Part shown: piece by piece, positions 6,872 through 59,032 of the stretch
How the letters are laid out: each line of letters begins with the position of its first letter
How positions within the stretch are numbered: the stretch's first letter is position 1
Assembly (NCBI GenBank): GCA_000092065.1
Contig: CP000601.1
DNA: 64,000 nt
DNA from: Ostreococcus lucimarinus
Lineage: Eukaryota
Reading direction: 5' to 3' (one strand)
Made by a program: the position numbers and the translations under genes
Notes under the pieces: model-generated
What the model saw: the letters and a program-made list of their open reading frames with translations, nothing else
What the model was told of the DNA's origin: nothing
Database searches by the model: none

Positions 6872-6985
6872 CTCTTCCTGCGGGTTTCGATCCCGCGGCT
6901 TCCAGATCTCTATCGGAGCAGCCGTCATATTCGACGGAGACTTTTTCCTAACAGTCTGACACTCTACCAGCTGAGTTAAGGAAGA
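6872..6985 (-). tRNA. tRNA-Asn (anticodon GUU) with a 41-nt intron at the canonical 37/38 position
   Basis: Manual cloverleaf: acceptor TCTTCCT/AGGAAGA, D arm ACTC-AGCTGGTA-GAGT, anticodon stem TCAGA/TCTGG, loop CTGTTA|intron|A, variable loop AAGCC, T arm GCGGG-ATCGAAA-CCCGC, discriminator G. The mature length is 73 nt. The T loop has A54/A60, unusual for an elongator tRNA. Confidence 0.8.
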
Positions 6986-10457: not shown

Positions 10458-11867
10458 ATGCGCGCCGCGTGCGTGCGCGTCGTCGTCCCGGACGTCCCGT
10501 CGTCGTCGTCGTCGTCGTCGGGCGCCGCCGTCCCGACCTGGCTCCCTCCCGGCACGGGATTCGTCTCAAAAAGCCTCAAACTCGACGTCTCTCGACCCTC
10601 CCGCGCGACGCAGTGCGAATTCTACGTCGTCGGTACCTCCCACGCGAGCGCGGCGGCGGCGGCAGACGTTCGACGGGTCATACGACGCGCGAAACCGCAG
10701 GCTGTGGTGCTCGAGCTCGACCAAGAGCGCGCCGACGCCCTCGTCGCGAGCTTCGTCGAACGCGCGCGCGTGATCGACGATTCCGAATACGGGAGCGATT
10801 TGTTGACCGGTATCATCGAATCAGAGCGCGAGGACGCGCTGACGGTGTACGGGGACGTGCGGGCGAGAGGTATAGGCGAGGCGTTGGCGGCTCGCGCGTT
10901 CGGGACGAACCCTTTCGCGATCGAACGGTGGAAAACGGTGTTGGCGTACGTGAAAAACGCGTGGGATGGTGGATCCGTGGGTGTTTCGAGCGATGGCGCG
11001 CTCGCCGCGGCGGACGTGGCGAGAGCTCTCATGGACGAGCCGAGAAATCTGACGCCGCTCGCGGGACCGGCGGCGGCGTTCGTCGCGGCGACGTTGGCGA
11101 GCTTGGCGATGCCGAACGGAGCGGAGAACGGTCTCGTGGACGCAGTCGGCGTGTTCCTTGCGCTTTTATTATTTTGCCCGCTCGTGGAGACGCTGTGGAT
11201 GGAAAGAGACGAGGTGTTGTGCGCCAACGCGTTGAACGCCGTCGACGTGTGCTCGGGCATCGCTCGAGGGCGGGTACGCCGCGTGCGATTTGGGTTTTCC
11301 ACCGATCCGTCGGCGACGAAGAAGAGCATGCAAACATTCACCCCGAGTGATGCTGGCGCGGTGCCGTGCTTCACGCTGAAACGTCCGCTGAAACGGGGCG
11401 AAACGAGAAGGCTGAACTTGTGGGAGCCGCGTTGGCTAGCGCTCATGGACTCGCTCGCGGAAGCGAATGGCGGATCCCTCGTGGGCGCCGAGCTCGGGTG
11501 TTTACTCGGGCGCGCGAGACATTACGTGAGTAGTTCTTGCTTTGAGATTCTAGGCGATGCGGCTCGACGTACTGGAACCGTGGCCGTTGAGGATTCCATG
11601 CGCCGCGCACGAGTGACGCGCGTGGTGGAGGGCGAGCGCCCGACGACAAAGGCTCGGAAATTGGAGGTTTGGATCGAAGGAATGGACGAGTGCGACGTGC
11701 ACGCGTTAGAGACACATCCGGCTGGGTATTTACTCGCGAGCGCGAGCGTCGAGGCGTCGCAAGCGCCGCGGATTGATGAAGACGACGACGAAGTCGTCAC
11801 GTGCGTCATCGTCACCGGCTTGGCGCACGCGAACGGCATCGTTCGCGGCATAGCCGAGGCGCAGTAG
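10458..11867 (+). CDS. TraB-family domain protein with a C-terminal LON-N (PUA-like) substrate-binding-type domain
   Basis: EFYVVGTSHASAAAAADVRRVIRRAKPQAVVLELD resembles the TraB/PrgY N-terminal motif. PCFTLKRPLKRGETRRLNLWEPRWLALM resembles the LON N-terminal domain start (LPLFPL...L.IFEPRY..M). Confidence 0.55.
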   Translation: MRAACVRVVVPDVPSSSSSSSGAAVPTWLPPGTGFVSKSLKLDVSRPSRATQCEFYVVGTSHASAAAAADVRRVIRRAKPQAVVLELDQERADALVASFVERARVIDDSEYGSDLLTGIIESEREDALTVYGDVRARGIGEALAARAFGTNPFAIERWKTVLAYVKNAWDGGSVGVSSDGALAAADVARALMDEPRNLTPLAGPAAAFVAATLASLAMPNGAENGLVDAVGVFLALLLFCPLVETLWMERDEVLCANALNAVDVCSGIARGRVRRVRFGFSTDPSATKKSMQTFTPSDAGAVPCFTLKRPLKRGETRRLNLWEPRWLALMDSLAEANGGSLVGAELGCLLGRARHYVSSSCFEILGDAARRTGTVAVEDSMRRARVTRVVEGERPTTKARKLEVWIEGMDECDVHALETHPAGYLLASASVEASQAPRIDEDDDEVVTCVIVTGLAHANGIVRGIAEAQ

Positions 11868-47977: not shown

Positions 47978-49108
47978 CTAGGATGTCTTGGCCGATTTCG
48001 GGGTGACTTCCTCGGCGCGCGTCTCGCGAAGGAAGACGCGGTCTTCGGGCTTGTTGTTCTCTCGCTCTTCGTGCGCGTACGAAGACGCGATGGCGAGCAA
48101 GGACCCACAAGGACTGAAAGCGAGCGCTGAGATGGAGGTGGGGTAGCGGGGCGACTGAAAAAGTCGCTTTTTAGCGTCGCCATCCCAAAAATTGACGTAA
48201 CCGTCGCCGCCGCCCGTGGCGAATGTGCCGTGGACGGGATGAAACGCCACCGCGTGGACGGGATAAACAATCTCACCCACGCTCGCGTCATCGGTTTTGC
48301 GATGACACTTGAACGCATATTTTCGCTTGTCGTTCTCTTCATCGCGTATGAACTCCACCGCTACGCGTCCCTCGACGCTCGCGGCCACGAATCCATCGCC
48401 TCGGATATTTGCTGCGATGGCGCGCGTTTGAAACCGCATGCTCGAACGTCTATTTATCAACGGACGCGGCGGCGCTTCCGACGCGCGTCGTCCGTCATCA
48501 CCATCCACACCGCGCACTAAATCTCGCGTCTCGTACGCCAAAACTTGCCCATCGCTCGTCGCCACGAAAATCTTACCGTCTCTCAAATCCGCCGCGTAGC
48601 ACTTCCCAGCCGTCTTCGTCGTCGACACCGCGCGCCCTCGCTCGTCCTTCGTCAAATCCCACGCCCTAATCGTTCGATCCCAGCCAAACGTAAACAATTT
48701 CTTCGTCGCATCATCGTACTCCACCGCCGACACCGCGCCGTCGTCGTGCGCGCCGACGACGCGAAACGCGCCAGTTTTAAAATCGACGAGGCGCACCGAC
48801 CCGTCGAGGCATCCCACGCACGCCGCGTCCTCATCCGTCCCGACGAACGTCCCGCACAGCGCGGGCGCGCCCAAATCGATCGAGTTCAACGATTTCACGT
48901 CCCCGATCTCGCGCGCGCGGCACGCGTACCGCCGCGCGGTCCCGTCCCAGGACGTCACCAGGAGCGTCAACCGTCGCGCCATCCCATCGTCGTCGTCGTC
49001 GCGACCCTCTCCCGCGCTGACCGCGCAGAACCGCACCGCGCTGACGCCGTCGCCGAACGCCGCGCCTCCGGCCCCTCGCACGTCGCGACCGAGGTCTCGA
49101 TGCGCCAT
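47978..49108 (-). CDS. BUB3: Mitotic checkpoint WD40 protein BUB3
   Basis: KYAFKCHRK...IVYPVHAVAFHPVHGTFATGGGDGYVNFWDGDAKKRLFQSPRYPTSISALAFSPCGSLLAIASSY closely parallels plant BUB3. Confidence 0.85.
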   Translation of the reverse strand: MAHRDLGRDVRGAGGAAFGDGVSAVRFCAVSAGEGRDDDDDGMARRLTLLVTSWDGTARRYACRAREIGDVKSLNSIDLGAPALCGTFVGTDEDAACVGCLDGSVRLVDFKTGAFRVVGAHDDGAVSAVEYDDATKKLFTFGWDRTIRAWDLTKDERGRAVSTTKTAGKCYAADLRDGKIFVATSDGQVLAYETRDLVRGVDGDDGRRASEAPPRPLINRRSSMRFQTRAIAANIRGDGFVAASVEGRVAVEFIRDEENDKRKYAFKCHRKTDDASVGEIVYPVHAVAFHPVHGTFATGGGDGYVNFWDGDAKKRLFQSPRYPTSISALAFSPCGSLLAIASSYAHEERENNKPEDRVFLRETRAEEVTPKSAKTS

Positions 49109-49381: not shown

Positions 49382-52300
49382 ATGCGGGCCCCGTCGCGCG
49401 CGCCGTGCGCGTCCGCGCGCCCGGAGGCCGGCGTCGTCGACGCCCTCGATGATCTCGCCGCCGTCGACGCCCGCGCGTGCGGCATCGGCAAGCTCACGAT
49501 CGCGCACGACGACGACGACGACGACGCGCGAGGTCTCCGCCATCGCGACCGCGGCGCGTTCGCCCTCGATTTGCGCGCGTGGTCGTTCACCGCGCGCACG
49601 CAGCCGGTCCGCGCGCTCGGGGCGTGCGCGCGAGACGCGTCCGTCGACATGCGCGTGCCGTTCAGGGACGAATACGAGCGACACAGGGCGTCGCGACCGG
49701 ACGAACGCGCGCCGCGAGGGGCGAGTTGGCGCATCCATCGAGTGCGAGGATGGCGCTTCGACCTGCGCGCGCTGTACGAGGAGGTGAAAAGACGCGGTGG
49801 CGCGGACGCGATCGATGGAAATCAAGGCTGGCGCGAGGTCGCGGAGGCGATCGGGGCGCACGGACGCGGATGCGCGGCGGGACACGCGGCGAGAGCGCTG
49901 CACGGGGCGTGGCTGGAGGCGTTCGCGCGCGACGCCAAGCGAAGAGAAGACGCGGTGAAGAGCGCGCAGTTCGACGCGGTGAAGGGAGAGATCGAACAAG
50001 ATGACGCGCTGGCGATCGATGCGCTGTGTGGGCTCGAATTTGGGGCGTCGGGCGCGCCCGAACGGCGAGTCAAGGTGGAAAATGTGCGTAATTCGTGCCA
50101 TATCTTCTTCGCGCGGGACCGGGATGACGGCGAATCGCACGCGTTCGCGGCGCGTGCGACGCGCGCGCGCGATGATGGGCGTCGCGATGACGTGCGACTG
50201 ACTTTTACGGCGCGTGTTTTCGCGACGCAGGGCCTCGATCTCGTCGCCTCGCAGCTCGCGGACGCGCCCGAGGGCGACGCCGACTGCGACGTGTGCGGCG
50301 CGAGCGGGAACGAAGACGCGATGATCCTGTGCGATGGGTGCGATCGAGGGTGCGTATACGACAATGCCACGCGAGAACGCGCGCGTGAAAATTATCTCGA
50401 TCGTTCGGACGCGCGTTCGGGGAGAGAGAGCGCTCGCGCGGCGCGCGAGGGCGCGGCGAACGCGCGCGTGGGCGACGGTTAGACGTGGGGTTTAGAGGCG
50501 CGCGGGGGAGAAGGAGCCGCGAAGGAGCGACGAGACTGACGAATGATGCGCGCGTAGGTCACATATGTACTGCTTAACGCCGAAGATGACTGAAGTGCCG
50601 AGTGGAGAGTGGTTTTGTGGACGATGCGAAGAGATTGACGCGGAGGTGGAGCGATTGAGCGCGGATGAAGGGACGCAGTTTACGCTCGGCGATTTCAACG
50701 AGGCGTGCATAGAATTTGATACGGCGTTCTTTGGCGAGGACGCCAAGCGAACTGGGATCGATATGCAGGTGATTGAGGAGTGTTTCTGGCGAATGGTTGA
50801 AGATGCGAGCTCGGTGGATGATGTTTGCGAGGTCAAATGCGGCACGGCGATTGACACGACAAAGTACGGAAGCGGGTTCCCGAGACACGGCGAAGCGCTT
50901 CAGGTAAAGATTGACGGCGTGAGCCCGGAATCTATCAAGCGCTGGTCAGAGTCGAAATGGAATCTCAACAACGTCGCGCGCGCGAGTGGGGAAAAGTCGT
51001 CGCTACTGGGCGCGTTGAAGGATGACGTGGCGGGCGTGACGACGCCATTCTTAGAAGTCGGAAGCACGTTTAGTTCCACGACTTGGCGTCGAGAAGAGCA
51101 TAACATGTACAGTATCACTTACAATCACTGGGGTGCCGCGAAACTGTGGTACTGCGTGCCGGCGAGTGCAGCGGACAAGTTGGAAGAATGCTTCCAGAAG
51201 GTGATGCCCGACGTCTACGAGGCGCACGTCAACGATTTGGGAAGCGTCTTTACGATGCTCTCGCCGAGCTTCTTGATGAGCGCGGGAGTGCCCGTGCACA
51301 CGTTGGAGCAATTCCCAGGAGAATACGTGGTGACGTATCCCGGGGCGTACTACGCGTCGTTCAACTGTGGATTGAACTGCACGGAGAGCGTCAACTTTGT
51401 GCCCGCTGACTGGCTCCCAGAGGGCTCGGCGAGCGTGGAGAGAAACCGATCGTACGCCAAGCGTTCATTGTTTAGTCACGACGAGTTGGTTTGCAGAGTA
51501 GCAAACAATCCTAGTTCGAGCATAGCGCCGCACTTGTGGCCCGAGATTGCGCGCTTGTACGCTGAAGAGGCAAACGGTCGCGCCGAGCTTTTCGCGTCTG
51601 GCGTGACGCGCAGCGCGCAAATGACGTCAGCAGACGACGACGACGACGACGATGGCTGCGAAAAGCCTCGTAAAGTACGATCTAGGTTTGACGATGCATC
51701 GAACTCTGGATCCGATGAGTGCGTTGTTTGTCGACACATTTTGTACTCGTCTGGCGTCGGGTGCTCGTGCGACGAGACGCGCAAGGCGTGCTTGCGACAC
51801 GTCAACGACTTGTGCAAATGTGCGATGTCGAAGAAGACGATGTTTTACAGAGAAACAGTGGCTGATTTAGAAAGTCTGGTGAAGAAGACGGAGAAGGCGC
51901 TTTCTCAGAAGGAACTAGCCAGCTTAAAATCCAAGCACAGCGACTTGGACTCAGTCACAGTGAACAAGAATCTCGTCAAGAAGGCTCAGGCTTGGGTGAA
52001 ACGAGTGGGCGAAGAGCTCGTCAAACCACCTTTGCCGCCGCTGGACAAGATGAGAAATTTACTCGCTGCGGGTGAAGAGTTTATTTGGGGTGGTGCTGAT
52101 ATGAAGGCGGCTCGAGAAGCGTACACTCGCGTGACGAACGCCGTCGCGTGGCAGACGAGTCTTGTGGCGCTGAAGCAAAGGCTTGGATCCAGTGCTGGTG
52201 CCGAGGCCGCGCACGATGACGCTGGTGAAGCGCGATTGAGATTGAACAGACTAAAAGAGCTCCTTGACAACCCACCGGTACCGATGCCTAAGGCTGATAC

Positions 52301-54224
52301 TCAACCTTTCCGCGATTTGCTCGCGGCGGGCTTGAAATTGGAGGAACGCATCAAGGCGGCTCTCGCCGAGGTACCGAATCCATCTCCTCGCGCTTGTACG
52401 ACGCTTCAAACTGAAGCGAATAAGTTTGGTGTGGAAGTCCCTTCATATAAAAAGCTGAAGGACGTCATCGTTAGAGCAGGCGCGTGGTCCACGAAGGTGC
52501 GCGGCGCGCTTCCAGGACGACGACAACTCCCGCCGCGCGAGGAACTAGCGAATGCTCGAGAGATCGAGGCGTTATACGAAGAGGCGCATGGATTACCCGT
52601 TCAGCAGAGCGAACTCTTGACTTTGCGCAAATCTTTAGAAGAGTTGAATTTTTGGCGCGCAAAGTCTGAGTCGCTGTTCGTCGCCAAGGTTGACGTGGAA
52701 GAAGCCGAGGCGCTTCTCAAGGAGGGCATGGCGTTGTCAACAAAACTCGACGAGGTCGACAGACTAGCCGATCAAATCAAAGCTGTCAAAGTGTGGGCCG
52801 ATCATGCTCGAGCGAGTGATTATCCGGGAGCAAGAGTGACGGATTTGCACATGCTTCTCGTCGAGGGTGAAAAGTTTAGCGTGCGAGTGGACGAAGTCGA
52901 GTGGTTGCGAAACCGTATCGTCGTCCGGGAGCTGGCAGAGAAATTGAAGGACATGGTTTCATCGAAGAAATATCCGCTCGCCGAAGTCGAAGCGGCCGTG
53001 CGGGCGGGTAACGAGTTCCTCGACTCCGAAGATAAAGAGGTTGCCCCAGATGAAGAAGCGCTGCTGGCGCAGTGCGAGAGCCACATCAACGCGGCGAAGA
53101 AGTGGAACGAGCGCGCGGCGGTGATGCTCAAATCTCTCGATAGTAAGGACCGACCGTCACTCGAAGACGCCGCGTCGCTCATCCGCGAAGGAAGCTCGAT
53201 TCCAATCTTTCTGAATGGATTCGACGTGCTTTCAGAAGCGGTCAATGTAGCCAAGTCTTGGTTGGATCGTGCACAACCTTGTTTGAAGGGAAAGCAGCTC
53301 ACTCGTCGCGGTGTGTCAAATCCGATTCCGCCGCTTTCCGAGGCGCAAGAGCTCATGAAAGAGTCTTCGAACTTGAAATTGTTTGTCAAGGAAGTTGAAG
53401 CTTTGGAAGAACGCGTCGAAGCCGCAGAAGAGTGGGACGTGGACGCGAAGGACGCCATCGAGCGCTGGCGAGAAGACGGCGCCGAGGTGACGTTGACCGA
53501 GCTTGAACTTTCGCACGAAGACTTTGGATTAGAATTACCAGCCATGGAGACAGTTCGCATTCGTTTAAAGTCGCTCAAGTGGGAAGAACGCGTCGCTAAG
53601 ATCATTGCACCCAAGGCGAAGCTCGTCGAGGACACCGTTTTGGACGAGCTCAGGGAAGAAATCGACGTGCTTCAAGACTTGAAAGAGGATCTTGTCGCTG
53701 AAATCATGAAACGGTACACGATTGTGGACGAATGGCGCAAGAAAGCGGATCGTTTGCTCGATCCTCCTCTCCTTGAAGACGGTCGATTGGCTCCGAGTGC
53801 ATCACCGGAGGAAATAGACGCCCTCATCGCCGAAGGCAAGGCACTTCCCGCTGACGTCTCGAAGGTAGAAGACCTCGAGGCGTCGTTGGCGGATCACGCA
53901 CAGTGGGTCGACACCGTTCGTAAGTGCTTGAACAGTGTCGCTGAAGGTCGATCTCGCCCTTCGATTGACGAATTATACGATCTTCTAGCGGAGGTGGAAG
54001 ATTTGACCTTCAAGTGCTCAGAGAGACAAGCGCTCACAAATGCGTGCAACGCCGCCACGGCGTGGACGGAGAGGCTCAACGCGTTGCTCTGGGCAAACGA
54101 TCAGGGTGAAGTCAAACAAGAAAAAACGCTTATCGAAATGTTGAGCAATGTTCTTGATTCCATCAAAGCTGGTGTGGAAGACATCACCGGGACTGGCGAA
54201 CCGCCGGAGACGGAGGAGGGTTAG
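49382..54224 (+). CDS. KDM5/JARID-type protein (JmjN-like, ARID, PHD, JmjC, C5HC2, PLU-1 region); exons 49382..50349 and 50558..54221, ending at an in-frame TAG
   Basis: ARID (WRFDLRALYEEVKRRGG...GWREVAEAIG). PHD1 is split by an intron (CDVCGASGNEDAMILCDGCDRG|SHMYCLTPKMTEVPSGEWFCGRC). JmjC (FSSTTWRREEHNMYSITYNHWGAAKLWYCVP ... GEYVVTYPGAYYASFN). C5HC2 (CVVCRHILYSSGVGCSCDETRKACLRHVNDLCKC). Confidence 0.85.
50350..50557 (+). other. Spliceosomal intron (208 nt, phase 2) inside the PHD1 coding region of the KDM5-like gene
   Basis: GG|GTGCGT donor, GAGACTGACGA branch-like motif and GCGCGTAG| acceptor. Splicing restores the C-x2-C-x4-H-x2-C spacing (CDGC-DRGS-H-MY-C). Confidence 0.85.
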
Positions 54225-56087
54225 TTCTGCCTTTGTCGACAAGCTGGAGGAATTCAAATGGTTGGATGTGATGATTGCGGTGACTGGTATCACTTAAAAT
54301 GTATCAATGTGACGCCTACTATGGCAAAGACGATGCACAATTACATCTGTCCGCCATGCATCGCGAAGAGTGGCAAGGCGAGCGCACTCTCGTTGGATAC
54401 GTATCGCTCGGTGCATCGCACCAATCGCCCAAACGTCATGCTTTTGCGAGAACTCCTCGGTGAAGCGCAGCGATTTCCTGGAGAAGTGCCAGAAGAAGCC
54501 GTGTTGAATCAAGTCATCAATACTCACGACGCGTGGCGATTGGAAGTACGAAAGACTTTGCATAGAAAGAGTATGAAGGAAGCACACGACAACGCCATCA
54601 GTCAAGCTTCGAAGATTGCCCAAGAAGCAGCGATGAGAGAATCTGAGGAACGCACACGACGAATCGCCGAAGCGTCGCTCGCGGCGACTGCAGAGAACCC
54701 CAATCCTCCAGCTTCTCTCACGCCATTACAGCAAGTCATGCTGATGGGTCAAGCTGTCACGTTCGCCGCAACGCAGCGCACGCACGCGTTGAACATTTCG
54801 CCGTGTTCGCAGGAGATTTCAGATGTCGTCACAAAGCAGCTCGGGCAACTTCAACAGCTCGCCATGCAACTCGCGATGTGCCAAGCTCAAATTCACATGG
54901 CTCCAGTTCGGTCTAGGCCCCACATCCTCCACGTCTTGATGATGCAGCAACAGCATCTAAAGATGACAAACGAGCACGAGGAAGAGCTGGCAAATGTTGG
55001 CGCTAGCAACTGGCTCATGGAAGCGACTCTGCAACTATCTGGAATGTCTGGCATGATGCCGCCGCCGACGGCGCAAGACACCGGCAAAGAACCTTCAACA
55101 TCCACGGGTCATGGTAGTCCAAGCGATATGTCTGCTCAGTTGAAGACGAACGAACCGATGATGGTTCCGCAGCAGTTCATGTTGCAACCGGCCATGCCAT
55201 CGCTTGTCGGCGACGCGTCTGGAATGCCCAAGCAAGAGATGGATTACACGTATGACATTCCTCGAAAAGATAATGTCGATCCAGCGCTGCAAGTGTACGC
55301 GGGCATGAAGGGTGCTCTGGCGATGGAGCTGGAACCTGTTGAGGAGACGCTCGCGTTGATGCGCGAAGTGTGCGGTCCGGCGTGGAGAGAACAAGCCACG
55401 CGGCTCATGACTGGTGCGCCGTTCCCGAGGTTGATCAAGCTTCACGAGCTCAAGGAATCTGCCATGGCTGCTGGTCTTTGCCCTGGTGCCGGCATTGATC
55501 CTTTGGCCGATCGCGCGCACGCGTTGGAGGTTGCTGGACAAATCTGGCTCGAACGCGCCGCCGCCGTCGTGCAAGACAAAACGATTCCTATCGAGGCGGC
55601 GCAGTTGCTGCTTCAAGAGGGTCGATCTTTGCCTTTATACTTGAAGGAGGAGCTCGAGGAGTTGGGAGAGCGATGCGAACTGTATTGCGTTTGCCGAAGC
55701 GCGTACGACGCTCTCAGGCCGATGATTTGCTGCGATCGATGCGATGGTTGGTTTCATTACGAGTGCATCGGCATGCAGTCGCCGGCGCCGGGCGAGGAAG
55801 ACGAAAACGCCGAAAACGTCAAGTTTGCCTGCCCAGAGTGCTGCGCGGCGCAAGGTATTCCGTACGTTCCGTTCCGTCCAGCGCCGAAGGACACGGACAA
55901 AGCGCCGGAGCGAGCCGCGCCTCCGCCGGCTGAAGAAGCTCCGGAGCCGCCAAAGACGGAAGAAGAAGCGAAGCCGCCCGCTAAACCAGAACCGGAAGTC
56001 GCGGACAACAAGAAGAAACGAAAAACGGTGGAGCCGACTCCGCCTGCTAATAAAAGTACCTCTAGTCGCAGCAGAAGACGAAAGTAG
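54225..56087 (+). CDS. In-frame continuation of the KDM5-like gene (two C-terminal PHD fingers, Q/M-rich region, K/E/P-rich tail)
   Basis: Same frame as 50558-54224. FCLCRQAGGIQMVGCDDCGDWYHLKCINV...YICPPC starts at the codon right after the TAG. The second PHD is YCVCRSAYDALRPMICCDRCDGWFHYECIG...FACPEC. The ATG at 54258 would truncate the first PHD. Confidence 0.6.
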   Translation, partial: FCLCRQAGGIQMVGCDDCGDWYHLKCINVTPTMAKTMHNYICPPCIAKSGKASALSLDTYRSVHRTNRPNVMLLRELLGEAQRFPGEVPEEAVLNQVINTHDAWRLEVRKTLHRKSMKEAHDNAISQASKIAQEAAMRESEERTRRIAEASLAATAENPNPPASLTPLQQVMLMGQAVTFAATQRTHALNISPCSQEISDVVTKQLGQLQQLAMQLAMCQAQIHMAPVRSRPHILHVLMMQQQHLKMTNEHEEELANVGASNWLMEATLQLSGMSGMMPPPTAQDTGKEPSTSTGHGSPSDMSAQLKTNEPMMVPQQFMLQPAMPSLVGDASGMPKQEMDYTYDIPRKDNVDPALQVYAGMKGALAMELEPVEETLALMREVCGPAWREQATRLMTGAPFPRLIKLHELKESAMAAGLCPGAGIDPLADRAHALEVAGQIWLERAAAVVQDKTIPIEAAQLLLQEGRSLPLYLKEELEELGERCELYCVCRSAYDALRPMICCDRCDGWFHYECIGMQSPAPGEEDENAENVKFACPECCAAQGIPYVPFRPAPKDTDKAPERAAPPPAEEAPEPPKTEEEAKPPAKPEPEVADNKKKRKTVEPTPPANKSTSSRSRRRK

Positions 56088-56135: not shown

Positions 56136-57362
56136 TCAACCGTCCAGGTGCTCGTCCCATCCCAGGTCTCGTTTCGGCTTGCGCCTACCGACCAACTTGG
56201 CCGCGTCCAGTTCGGTCAACAATTCAATTTCGTCGAGTGTTTCCTCGCTCACATCGATGTCGTCCGTCACCGCGAGCTTTTGACCCTTTCTATGACGCTC
56301 GACGAGTTCTTCGAGATATCCTTGCTTTGCGTAGTTCGGTATCAACCTAGACATGTACACGCCGCGCAAAATACGTTTTTCTTCCTCAGTCAAATCGCCG
56401 TGAAACCCTCGGCGGTTGATCCGGTCCGTCACGGCGTGCGACATCACGAGCGCGGCGGCGACGGAAATGTTCAAAGACTCGGTGAAGCCAAACATCGGAA
56501 TGTACACGGCGCCATCCCGCAGCGCTCGCGCCTCGTCCGAAACCCCCTCGCGCTCGTTCCCAAACACCACCGCCGTGGGCACGGTCCAATCGTAATGCGA
56601 CAGCGGCTGCGCGCCGTCAAACTCAGTCGTAAGAACGCGGTATCCTTTCGCCTTCGCGACTCTGAGCGCGCGTTCCGACGTCTCAAACTGCTCCACGTGT
56701 TGCCACTTCAGCGCCCCTCCCGACGTCCTCCCGCTCGCCTTGAACGACAGCCCCTTCGAGCTCACGATCGACGCGCACCCGATCCCCAGCGCCTCCGTCG
56801 TCCGACACACCGCCAAGATATTGCCGACGTCGTAGACGCCCTCTAGAATCGGCAGCAACGAAAAACTTCTATGCTCCAAAACGTTTTCCAGCCGCATGCG
56901 TCGCTCTTCCCCGACCATCGCCGTCGCGAGCGCCACCATCGTCTCCGTCTCGCACGTCGCCCTCGCGAACGCGAATCCATCGCCGTACGGGAATCTTTCC
57001 CTCTCGTCCTCGTTCGCGCGCGTCCCCAAATCTTCCCGCCGCGCCCGCACCAGCCCGTGAAACTCCAGCGCGTCCGGCGCCCACGCGCGCTGCCTTCGGT
57101 GCGCCTTCGCGCTCTTCGTCGCCACCGCGCCCGTGCGCGCCACCGCGCGCGTCGGTCGCGGCGTCGTGCGCTTCACGACGACGTCGTGCGGGCCGGCGTG
57201 CGCGCGCGACCCCGGTTCCGACACCGATTCCGATTCCGCCGCGTCGTCGTCGCGCGCGCGTCGCGTCGCCGGTCGAGCGACGCGCGCGGCGCGCTCGCGA
57301 GCGTCGCGTCGATTCGCGTCGATTCGCGATCCCGCGCCCGCGATCGCGCGCGTCGACGCCAT
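56136..57362 (-). CDS. SpoU/TrmH-family RNA 2'-O-ribose methyltransferase
   Basis: RMRLENVLEHRSFSLLPILEGVYDVGNILAVCRTTEALGI, AVVFGNEREGVSDEA and IPMFGFTESLNISVAAALVMSH (SPOUT motifs 1-3). Arg-rich, presequence-like N-terminus. Confidence 0.8.
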   Translation of the reverse strand: MASTRAIAGAGSRIDANRRDARERAARVARPATRRARDDDAAESESVSEPGSRAHAGPHDVVVKRTTPRPTRAVARTGAVATKSAKAHRRQRAWAPDALEFHGLVRARREDLGTRANEDERERFPYGDGFAFARATCETETMVALATAMVGEERRMRLENVLEHRSFSLLPILEGVYDVGNILAVCRTTEALGIGCASIVSSKGLSFKASGRTSGGALKWQHVEQFETSERALRVAKAKGYRVLTTEFDGAQPLSHYDWTVPTAVVFGNEREGVSDEARALRDGAVYIPMFGFTESLNISVAAALVMSHAVTDRINRRGFHGDLTEEEKRILRGVYMSRLIPNYAKQGYLEELVERHRKGQKLAVTDDIDVSEETLDEIELLTELDAAKLVGRRKPKRDLGWDEHLDG

Positions 57363-57460: not shown

Positions 57461-59032
57461 ATGACGCGCGAACGTCGCGCGCGCGCCGCGCGGTCGCGGG
57501 GCGCGCGCGCGCGCGAGACGATGGCGGCGGTGACGCTCGGGACGTTTTTGGTGTTGGGACGCGCGGGCGCGTTTCGCGGCGCGAGCGCGCGGCGCGCGCC
57601 GCTACAGGCGATGGACGCGGGCGCGGGAAGCGCGGGAGGGACGGCGTCGCGGCCGGCGCGGCGATGGATGACGCACCTGCTGCGCGATCACCCGGAGATG
57701 CGATGCACGCAGATTCCGAGCAAGCCGGTGATCGTCGGCGGCGACGGCGGCGGCGCGGGAAAGCCGCTGATGGAATTCCTGAGGGATTCGAACGCGGTGA
57801 CGTTCGGACCGACGGATAAGGATGGGAACAGCGACGCGGAGCGGTTGAGCGGGTTGGATGACATGGTGGTGGACGTCATGGCGTTTTCGAAGCGGTTGCT
57901 GTACGAACCGGATGATTTGCCGATGGATTTGCAAGCGGATTTAGCGAAACATTTGTGCGATATGTTTGCGAGACAGGAGAAGTGGTTGCACCCGGGATTG
58001 ACGATGAATGGGATACAACACGATCAAGAGGTCGGGCGGTGGGGATGGAAGGATCCGTTGGCGATGTATTTGGTGCCGATTTGGAGAGACGTGTACGGGC
58101 CGTCGGTGACGTACGTGCACTTGGTGCGGGATCCGCGGACGCTGCCGCTCGGGAATTTGCACGACAAGGAGCGGGATTTACAAAAGGCGTACTTTGGTCA
58201 AGAGCGATGGGAGCAGTTGACGGCAAAATTTGAATCCGAGTGGGCGCATCTCTCCCAGCACCAGTCGATGACGAGCGTGAAGAAGGACGACGTGATTGAT
58301 TTATTGCGCACGACGGCGTACTGGACGTCCATCAACTTTGAGCTCGGGGCGCTCATCAAGGGCCCGCTCAAGAACTACGCCACGGTGCTCCGGGCGGAGG
58401 ATTTGGTGCAACCGGACATGGATCACTTCCGACGCGACGCCACCGGGAAAAAACCGGAAAAGTACCAAGCCGCGCAAAAAGTCATGCAAGAGCTCACGAC
58501 GCTCCTCAAGCTCCCGGCGAAACTTTCCAACACGCTGGGAAGCCACGAACACATGAAGCAAAACCTCCGACGGTTCACGATCCACCGCGAAAAGTTCGTC
58601 TACCGCACCGACTCCCCCATCATCGAAGTCCAAACCCGCATCGCCGAGAAGACGTTGGAACTCTTCGGCTACTCCGCCGACGCCGCGCTCTTCGTCTCGC
58701 GGCACCCGTCGTCGAGCGAGCCCCACGGCCATCGTCTCACCCCCGAGGGCGAGTACATGCACGAGGAGCACAGGTATACTCCCGACGATTTCGAGCCCAC
58801 GATCGAACCCGCGTCGGAGGGCGATCTTCCCGGCATCACCAACCACGTCCTCGGCGCTCAGCTCAAGTACACCGACCGCGTCGAGCTCGAGCGCGCCAAG
58901 ACGCGCGCGCCCGACACGGAGCAATCTCGCGCCGTCGAGGCCCAGCTCATGGAGGCTAAGAAGAAGACCTTTTTGCTCGAAACCACCAAAATCGACGGCA
59001 AGTCTCTCAAGGACGTCATCGACCATCTGTGA
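57461..59032 (+). CDS. Sulfotransferase-like protein with an N-terminal signal anchor (assignment tentative)
   Basis: MAAVTLGTFLVLG hydrophobic start (alternative ATG at 57521). GGGAGKP, WGWKDPLAMYLVPIW and YVHLVRDPR loosely resemble the sulfotransferase 5'-PSB/3'-PB regions. Confidence 0.4.
   Translation: MTRERRARAARSRGARARETMAAVTLGTFLVLGRAGAFRGASARRAPLQAMDAGAGSAGGTASRPARRWMTHLLRDHPEMRCTQIPSKPVIVGGDGGGAGKPLMEFLRDSNAVTFGPTDKDGNSDAERLSGLDDMVVDVMAFSKRLLYEPDDLPMDLQADLAKHLCDMFARQEKWLHPGLTMNGIQHDQEVGRWGWKDPLAMYLVPIWRDVYGPSVTYVHLVRDPRTLPLGNLHDKERDLQKAYFGQERWEQLTAKFESEWAHLSQHQSMTSVKKDDVIDLLRTTAYWTSINFELGALIKGPLKNYATVLRAEDLVQPDMDHFRRDATGKKPEKYQAAQKVMQELTTLLKLPAKLSNTLGSHEHMKQNLRRFTIHREKFVYRTDSPIIEVQTRIAEKTLELFGYSADAALFVSRHPSSSEPHGHRLTPEGEYMHEEHRYTPDDFEPTIEPASEGDLPGITNHVLGAQLKYTDRVELERAKTRAPDTEQSRAVEAQLMEAKKKTFLLETTKIDGKSLKDVIDHL

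Follow-up and report, generated by a model that had tools for sequence, protein, structure and literature searches.

The KDM5/JARID proteins KDM5A-D (human JARID1) and plant JMJ17, which are active demethylases of tri- and dimethylated histone H3 lysine 4, are built in the order (JmjN)-ARID-PHD1-JmjC-helical-C5HC2-PLU-1-PHD2-PHD3. The chemistry of Fe(II)/2-oxoglutarate (2OG) oxygenases requires a 2-His-1-carboxylate triad, and histidine mutants of KDM5 enzymes serve as catalytically dead controls. Proteins of KDM5-like architecture, with a JmjC domain and multiple PHD fingers, also occur in fungal chromatin complexes, namely Ecm5 of Saccharomyces cerevisiae (Snt2/Rpd3) and Msc1 of Schizosaccharomyces pombe (Swr1); both presumably lack the ligands. 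Among the five yeast JmjC proteins, Ecm5 alone has no demonstrated demethylase activity (PMC8329514; PMC2614481), and the JmjC domain of JARID2 (Jumonji), an animal JARID-family cofactor of Polycomb repressive complex 2, is inactive (PMC2938197). For the KDM5/JARID subfamily the cofactor residues have been given as conserved, from sequence logos, in a survey that includes Ostreococcus lucimarinus (PMC9029850). Here we describe a gene of this very small marine green alga in which they are not. It lies on the + strand, as do all its features below, in a stretch of 64,000 nucleotides from strain CCE9901 (Mamiellales, Bathycoccaceae; contig CP000601.1), which we call the window and from whose first letter all positions are counted. 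The gene encodes the same order of domains as KDM5A-D and JMJ17, and we consider it likely that it is the Ostreococcus orthologue of JARID/KDM5 (JMJ17-type) histone H3 lysine 4 (H3K4) demethylase, turned into a non-catalytic pseudo-demethylase.

The decisive region is the JmjC domain (51051-51398; Pfam 108.8 bits, E 2.8e-31), where the double-stranded beta-helix is kept and the site for metal and 2OG is replaced. The translation of the open reading frame (ORF) 50565-54224 holds ...VGSTFSSTTWRREEHNMYSITYNHWGAAKLWYCVP... and ...VVTYPGAYYASFN..., and its best phmmer match among the sequences of the Protein Data Bank is human KDM5A (5ceh; E 3.7e-70), aligned without gaps across both motifs. In this alignment the Fe(II) facial triad HxE...H is replaced by RxE...Y: the first ligand, KDM5A His483, is Arg (CGT, 51087-51089; residue 451), Glu485 is kept (GAA, 51093-51095) and the distal ligand, His571, is Tyr (TAC, 51351-51353; residue 539). 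Exactly these pairings had been claimed by the original prediction, made from the letters of the window and a list of their ORFs, and its alignments of the first motif (SSTTWRREEHNMYSITYNHWGAAKLWYCVP) and of FPRAYHSGFN with YPGAYYASFN were reproduced as well; SSTTWRREEHNMYSITYNHWGAAKLWYCVP and YPGAYYASFN are both present in the translation. It had further stated that a 2OG-contacting Asn is Thr while the Lys is retained, which is indeed what we find at Asn493 (Thr, 51117-51119; Ser in one sister lineage) and Lys501 (Lys, 51141-51143).

Two further substitutions had escaped the original prediction. KDM5A Tyr409, which we take from KDM5A structures to be a 2OG contact, is replaced by Cys (50838-50840) in all Ostreococcus-type proteins and is Tyr in all outgroups shown; Tyr472, in the wall of the active site, is replaced by Glu (51054-51056). 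The position of KDM5A Phe480 is Thr in the window protein, so that the 2OG-site positions Tyr409, Phe480, Asn493 and Lys501 read Cys, Thr, Thr and Lys, and the Lys alone is kept. Other JmjC subfamilies normally have a Thr where KDM5A has Phe480 (PMC9029850). In the numbering of the full-length product the key residues are C368, E440, T448, R451, E453, T461, K469 and Y539.

Relatives of the protein were sought with a word-indexed search and with an exhaustive HMMER search over 1.84 billion representatives. They form five clusters at 90% identity, 72-100% identical to the window protein; apart from one transcriptome and one NCBI assembly, their sources are marine metagenomes. In each retrieved protein we mapped the eight positions that correspond to KDM5A 409, 472, 480, 483, 485, 493, 501 and 571. 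The pattern C-E-T-R-E-T/S-K-Y was found in 44 of the 44 mappable members of the Ostreococcus-type clade, whereas the nearest relatives outside it (P0129, P0006, P0131 and P0007), at 36-47% identity, show Y-Y-F-H-E-N-K-H, the canonical residues. For the three iron ligands only, HxE...H is also present in 191 other KDM5-like proteins examined. Given that RxE...Y occurs in every mappable clade member, it is neither chance nor an oddity of one assembly. Conservation of the substitutions in related algae had been proposed as a check, and the answer is that all Ostreococcus-type lineages carry them while the site is intact in the Micromonas-like orthologues, a label for which their synteny, their place in the tree and a GC content of 60-68% are the only basis.

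The genomic neighbourhood and the tree agree on where the change arose. In the window the gene is adjoined upstream by a WD40 gene (47978-49108, - strand), with an NFACT gene farther upstream, and downstream by a SpoU-type methylase gene (56136-57362, - strand). The order WD40(-)/KDM5(+)/SpoU(-) is repeated in two sister lineages (contigs L001-4 and L007-14), and it is also found around P0007 (L005), whose active site is intact. P0129 (L016), likewise intact, has the SpoU gene downstream, on a contig that covers the downstream flank only. In a neighbour-joining tree of the region from JmjC to the zinc finger, the Ostreococcus-type clade has 100% bootstrap support and a longer stem, and it is sister to the intact Micromonas-like clade with 76% support. 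The tree, together with synteny shared with intact genes, indicates that the substitution was derived within an orthologous gene and is not the mark of an old inactive paralogue. Judged by these comparisons, the gene is orthologous to bona fide KDM5 genes, and its predicted inactivation is independently derived and genus-wide. The best 150 matches of the exhaustive HMMER search included no recognisable AT-rich Bathycoccus-like orthologue; the contig of P0139, which we checked for the Bathycoccus state, is too short for synteny.

One or both iron-ligand histidines are missing in about ten more KDM5-like representatives as well (among them P0146, P0154 and P0210; P0224, P0227, P0233 and P0269; and P0239). 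In the tree these are spread over at least three branches other than the Ostreococcus-type clade, which shows that loss of the catalytic site is recurrent in the family. P0146 (L018, 6616-13437), with Q-D...R at the ligand positions, was considered as a possible case of an earlier loss within Mamiellales and rejected: it is not syntenic, belongs to another branch and has kept its JmjN.

The gene has three exons, and the region 51087-51353 that carries the substituted ligands lies in the JmjC of the third. Exon 1 (49382-50083; start codon at 49382, GC 71.5%) codes for the JmjN remnant and the partial ARID, and was delimited at its end by alignment with P0103, a complete protein of 2096 residues known from the MMETSP transcript data of a sister Ostreococcus-type lineage, which confirms both splice junctions. 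Intron 1 (50084-50230; 147 nt, GTGCGT donor, CTGAC branch-like motif, CAG acceptor) is in frame and free of stops, and an ORF scan therefore passes through it and adds 49 spurious residues; across this junction P0103 reads ...PKLEN|GLEEIAHQL. Exon 2 (50231-50349) codes for the first half of PHD1, which intron 2 (50350-50557; 208 nt, GTGCGT donor, ACTGAC branch-like motif, TAG acceptor) splits. The spliced product across it, ...CDGCDRGSHMYCLTP..., is identical in P0103. The GTGCGT donor is common to both introns, as is a CTGAC motif some 25-30 nt upstream of the acceptor. Exon 3 (50558-56087; GC ~55%) holds JmjC, the helical domain, C5HC2, PLU-1, PHD2 and PHD3, and in CCE9901 an in-frame TAG. 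The conceptual full-length product has 2116 residues. When the N-terminus was used as a query for the gene model of the reference annotation, the matches were ORF-type metagenome proteins only. We also observed a break in composition within the gene: exons 1 and 2 have GC 71% and GC at third codon positions (GC3) of 0.82, while exon 3 has 55% and 0.62, against GC3 of 0.74-0.81 in neighbouring genes. The break recurs in two sister Ostreococcus lineages (L007 and L001) and not in the Micromonas-like orthologues (L016 and L005).

According to the original prediction the protein keeps the full KDM5 domain set, and this needs qualifying. What stood is PHD1 (50285-50627, spanning intron 2; Pfam PHD at residues 253-297 of the spliced protein, 48.7 bits), the C5HC2 zinc finger (51720-51878; PF02928, 52.6 bits; aligned to KDM5A 664-719) and PLU-1 (best-scoring stretch 53103-54086; PF08429, 209.2 bits). 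What did not stand is the N-terminal part and, in this strain, the C-terminal one. At the position of JmjN there is only a remnant, aligned with relatives (49430-49606; GVVDAL...GIGKLTI...FALDLRAWSFTARTQPV), from which the hallmark residues are gone: neither the window protein nor P0103 gives a Pfam match to JmjN at E <= 10, compared with 67.6 and 50.2 bits in Micromonas-like orthologues. The ARID/BRIGHT domain (49739-49924; PF01388, 29.6 bits, E 9.6e-07) passes its cut-off of 24.1 bits with a partial profile (positions 25-88 of 89), where a Micromonas-like orthologue has the full profile and 81 bits. ARID and PHD1 do sit between the JmjN remnant and JmjC, as KDM5 architecture requires. PHD2 (54225-54368; Pfam PHD on ORF 54258-56087) and PHD3 (55686-55841; LYCVCRSAYD...MICCDRCDGWFH; Pfam PHD 56 bits in two stretches) lie 3' of the TAG, whereas environmental alleles have both fingers intact.

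The fold itself seems to have survived. For the first 450 residues of exon 3, AlphaFold2 gives a mean predicted local distance difference test score (pLDDT) of 83.9, with 87-96 in the barrel, and a predicted template-modelling score of 0.82; with that model Foldseek finds the catalytic cores of KDM5B, KDM5C, KDM5A and JMJ14 at a template-modelling (TM) score of ~0.75 and E of ~1e-34. The core of JmjC, the KDM5 C-terminal helical domain (51408-51515; PF21323, 29.4 bits) and C5HC2 is thus predicted to retain a KDM5-like fold, in line with the demethylase fold that had been proposed.

How does the protein compare with the known systems? With KDM5A-D and JMJ17 it shares the fold (the match to plant JMJ17 is ~28% identity over ~80-98% of the query), and it is a positional orthologue of intact Mamiellophyceae KDM5 genes. 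It differs from them in RxE...Y, in the replaced Tyr409, Tyr472 and Asn493, in the undetectable JmjN and in the partial ARID, and is predicted to be inactive. By architecture and orthology it belongs with KDM5; by its catalytic residues it does not. The likeness to animal JARID2 that had been suggested is apt as an analogy, since both are JARID-family proteins with a JmjC site that is, or is predicted to be, dead, but it does not extend to sequence: in the phmmer search JARID2 scores E ~1e-34, compared with 3.7e-70 for KDM5A and 9.3e-65 for JMJ14. The Ostreococcus protein is no JARID2 orthologue; unlike JARID2 it was derived independently from an intact KDM5 and keeps its PHD fingers and PLU-1, and the resemblance is a functional one only. 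From Ecm5 and Msc1 it differs by lineage and by its independent origin. By analogy it would work like JARID2, whose action is non-enzymatic, and probably like yeast Ecm5. It is most likely an independently derived pseudo-demethylase, and a well-supported one; dead JmjC proteins were already known (JARID2, Ecm5).

Given that the iron- and cofactor-binding residues are lost and the gene is nevertheless conserved, it most likely acts non-enzymatically. In the mechanism that we propose, the protein would fail to bind Fe(II) and 2OG, and hence would not demethylate. It may instead serve as a chromatin reader or scaffold, targeted by its PHD fingers and the remnant of ARID, with the dead core of JmjC and zinc finger as a structural module and PLU-1 as a further part of the reader or scaffold action. 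Where the metal would sit, there may be an Arg-Glu-Glu salt bridge instead, formed by the invariant Arg with two Glu residues, one retained and one new. The strong conservation of PHD2 (96%) and PHD3 (94%) among Ostreococcus lineages is consistent with such a role. PHD3 (LYCVCRSAYD..PMICCDRCDGWFH) has what we take to be the Y/Y/M/W cage pattern of fingers that bind trimethylated H3K4 (H3K4me3), such as that of BPTF.

The in-frame TAG (54222-54224) deserves separate consideration. It stands directly before PHD2, where a T has taken the place of the C in CAG (Gln), and shortens the product from 2116 to 1495 residues, so that PHD2 and PHD3, the two most conserved domains, are removed. All sister lineages have Gln at this position. 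One may suppose that the TAG is an assembly or sequencing error, or that it is read through, and that CCE9901 makes the full-length protein; in our opinion this has little chance of being correct. Indeed, an environmental contig of 7.9 kb that is 99.89% identical to the window (L006) has CAG, with C at 54222, and differs from the window by six substitutions, this single base included, and one 3-nt indel; the 1,863 nt downstream of the TAG also stay open in a conserved frame. However, an independent assembly, the Logan contig of run SRR1179203, agrees with the window at 100% identity for 9,660 bp, and the TAG is among them. As this run may derive from the same culture as the reference, it shows the base to be real in the strain and does not show it to be old. 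As to readthrough, we found no plausible context for it at the TAG, and GGT TAG TTC does not resemble the contexts known to allow it. A short intron that would excise the stop was also considered and discarded: only one GT...AG pair encloses it, and this would make an intron of 24 nt; moreover P0103, the transcript protein of the sister lineage, reads through the position with Gln. The TAG is therefore real in CCE9901, or at least reproducible, and it is not the state of the population: the truncated ORF of 1219 residues is found on one other contig only, that of the SRR1179203 assembly, whereas read-through forms of 1841 residues are recorded on at least 65 contigs. Probably, CCE9901 carries a crippled allele.

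The stop leads to the question of whether the whole gene is a functionless, decaying pseudogene, with the active-site changes and the TAG as steps of its loss. Besides the TAG, the erosion of JmjN and the unusually low GC3 of exon 3 would fit this, and so would the fast evolution of the N-terminus: exons 49382-50349, with the JmjN remnant and ARID, have 47-60% identity among Ostreococcus lineages, against 72-76% elsewhere, and are the fastest-evolving part. We nevertheless regard it as very improbable. In every environmental lineage the frame stays open for about 1,800 codons, the read-through forms far outnumber the single truncated one, and the sister lineage has a complete spliced transcript (P0103). 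Furthermore, between Ostreococcus lineages the proportion of non-synonymous differences (pN) is 0.13-0.18 in JmjC, 0.01-0.04 in PHD2 and 0.03-0.06 in PHD3, while synonymous sites are saturated (proportion of synonymous differences, pS, 0.70-0.80), for which reason we give the two measures side by side and not as a ratio. These are comparisons between species only, since the DNA of P0088 (L017) and P0004 (L001) is identical and allows no estimate from close lineages. Loss of function may apply to the CCE9901 allele, but not to the genus.

The distribution of constraint along the protein is also unlike that in the intact relatives. Among Ostreococcus lineages the amino-acid identity is 0.77 in JmjC, 0.68 in C5HC2, 0.81 in PLU-1, 0.96 in PHD2 and 0.94 in PHD3; among Micromonas-like proteins it is 0.85 in JmjC and 0.92 in C5HC2, the best conserved parts of that clade, and 0.51-0.64 in PLU-1. 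Compared with plant JMJ17, identity in JmjC is 0.47 for the Ostreococcus-type and 0.65 for the Micromonas-like proteins, while for C5HC2 and PLU-1 they do not differ. This drop, confined to JmjC, means that the domain went through a burst of change along the Ostreococcus stem and then came under constraint again. The whole protein is under purifying selection, strongest on the C-terminal PHD fingers and PLU-1, and the JmjC domain is not decaying. The new active-site residues are themselves invariant across the five lineages at seven of the eight positions, compared with 48% of the columns of the core (p ~0.03), which hints at a new role for the pocket.

That invariance, the retained Glu485 and Lys501 and the intact fold (AlphaFold2, Foldseek) could also be taken to mean that the protein is still an enzyme, whose Arg/Glu/Tyr site, perhaps with a nearby residue, performs demethylation or other chemistry, but this is hardly credible when both histidine ligands and three more pocket residues are altered together, when JmjN, the structural extension that completes the JmjC catalytic core (PMC2938197), is eroded. 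We know of no 2OG oxygenase, moreover, and this counts against such an enzyme too, that works with Arg and Tyr at both histidine positions.

Certain points weigh against our preferred interpretation of a non-catalytic reader or scaffold, and they should be stated together. Glu485 and Lys501 are retained together with much of the pocket, so that binding of some ligand is conceivable. The premature stop shows that CCE9901 can do without the full-length protein, at least in culture, and this weakens any claim of an essential function. Finally, the contrast with an intact sister clade depends on sequences whose name, Micromonas-like, has the basis given above.

A neighbouring ORF at 57461-59029 is residue for residue identical to XP_001422834.1 / ABP01193.1 of Ostreococcus lucimarinus CCE9901, in agreement with an origin in Mamiellales. 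The sole Rfam match in the window is a tRNA gene (6872-6985, - strand); as the match covers 114 nt and the model has 71 positions, there is probably an intron inside. The ORF at 10458-11867 (+ strand, 469 residues) belongs to a 90% cluster with full-length members of about 1028 residues, and its gene model is probably split by an intron. One JGI record names this cluster WD repeat-containing protein 35, a name of the intraflagellar-transport type in an alga without flagella.

Does Ostreococcus have other KDM5 activity? There is no second JmjC within the window according to tblastn. P0052, a metagenome protein with JmjN and JmjC, is Ala/Pro-rich, lies on a short contig and is not assignable to Ostreococcus. 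Our literature search returned no paper on an inactive Ostreococcus KDM5 and one survey with JmjC genes of O. lucimarinus (PMC9029850); it gives nine such genes, none of them KDM4 or KDM3, in tables that pool two green algae. It is conceivable, though in our judgement rather doubtful, that the genus is without any active KDM5-class H3K4me3 demethylase, and that its sole JARID orthologue is a non-catalytic reader whose remodelled, invariant pocket (Cys/Glu/Thr/Arg/Glu/Thr/Tyr) binds something new. If this were true, H3K4me3 would be lost only through histone turnover or dilution, and nature would have carried out, in these minimal eukaryotes, a separation-of-function experiment on what KDM5 does apart from demethylation.

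Surveys that count the JmjC genes of Ostreococcus as demethylases (e.g. PMC9029850) overstate its demethylase repertoire. As its allele is apparently truncated, strain CCE9901 is not to be treated as wild type for the KDM5-like gene. For the biochemistry of the family, the Ostreococcus and Micromonas-like proteins are a natural pair of orthologues that can be used for comparison, and gene targeting has been reported for O. tauri. In animals the catalysis-independent functions of KDM5 are debated and are usually probed with an engineered histidine mutant. In Ostreococcus, evolution has apparently fixed the equivalent of that mutant throughout the genus, while the orthologue is intact one genus away, and the strong constraint on PHD2, PHD3 and PLU-1 points to what the non-catalytic function would need.

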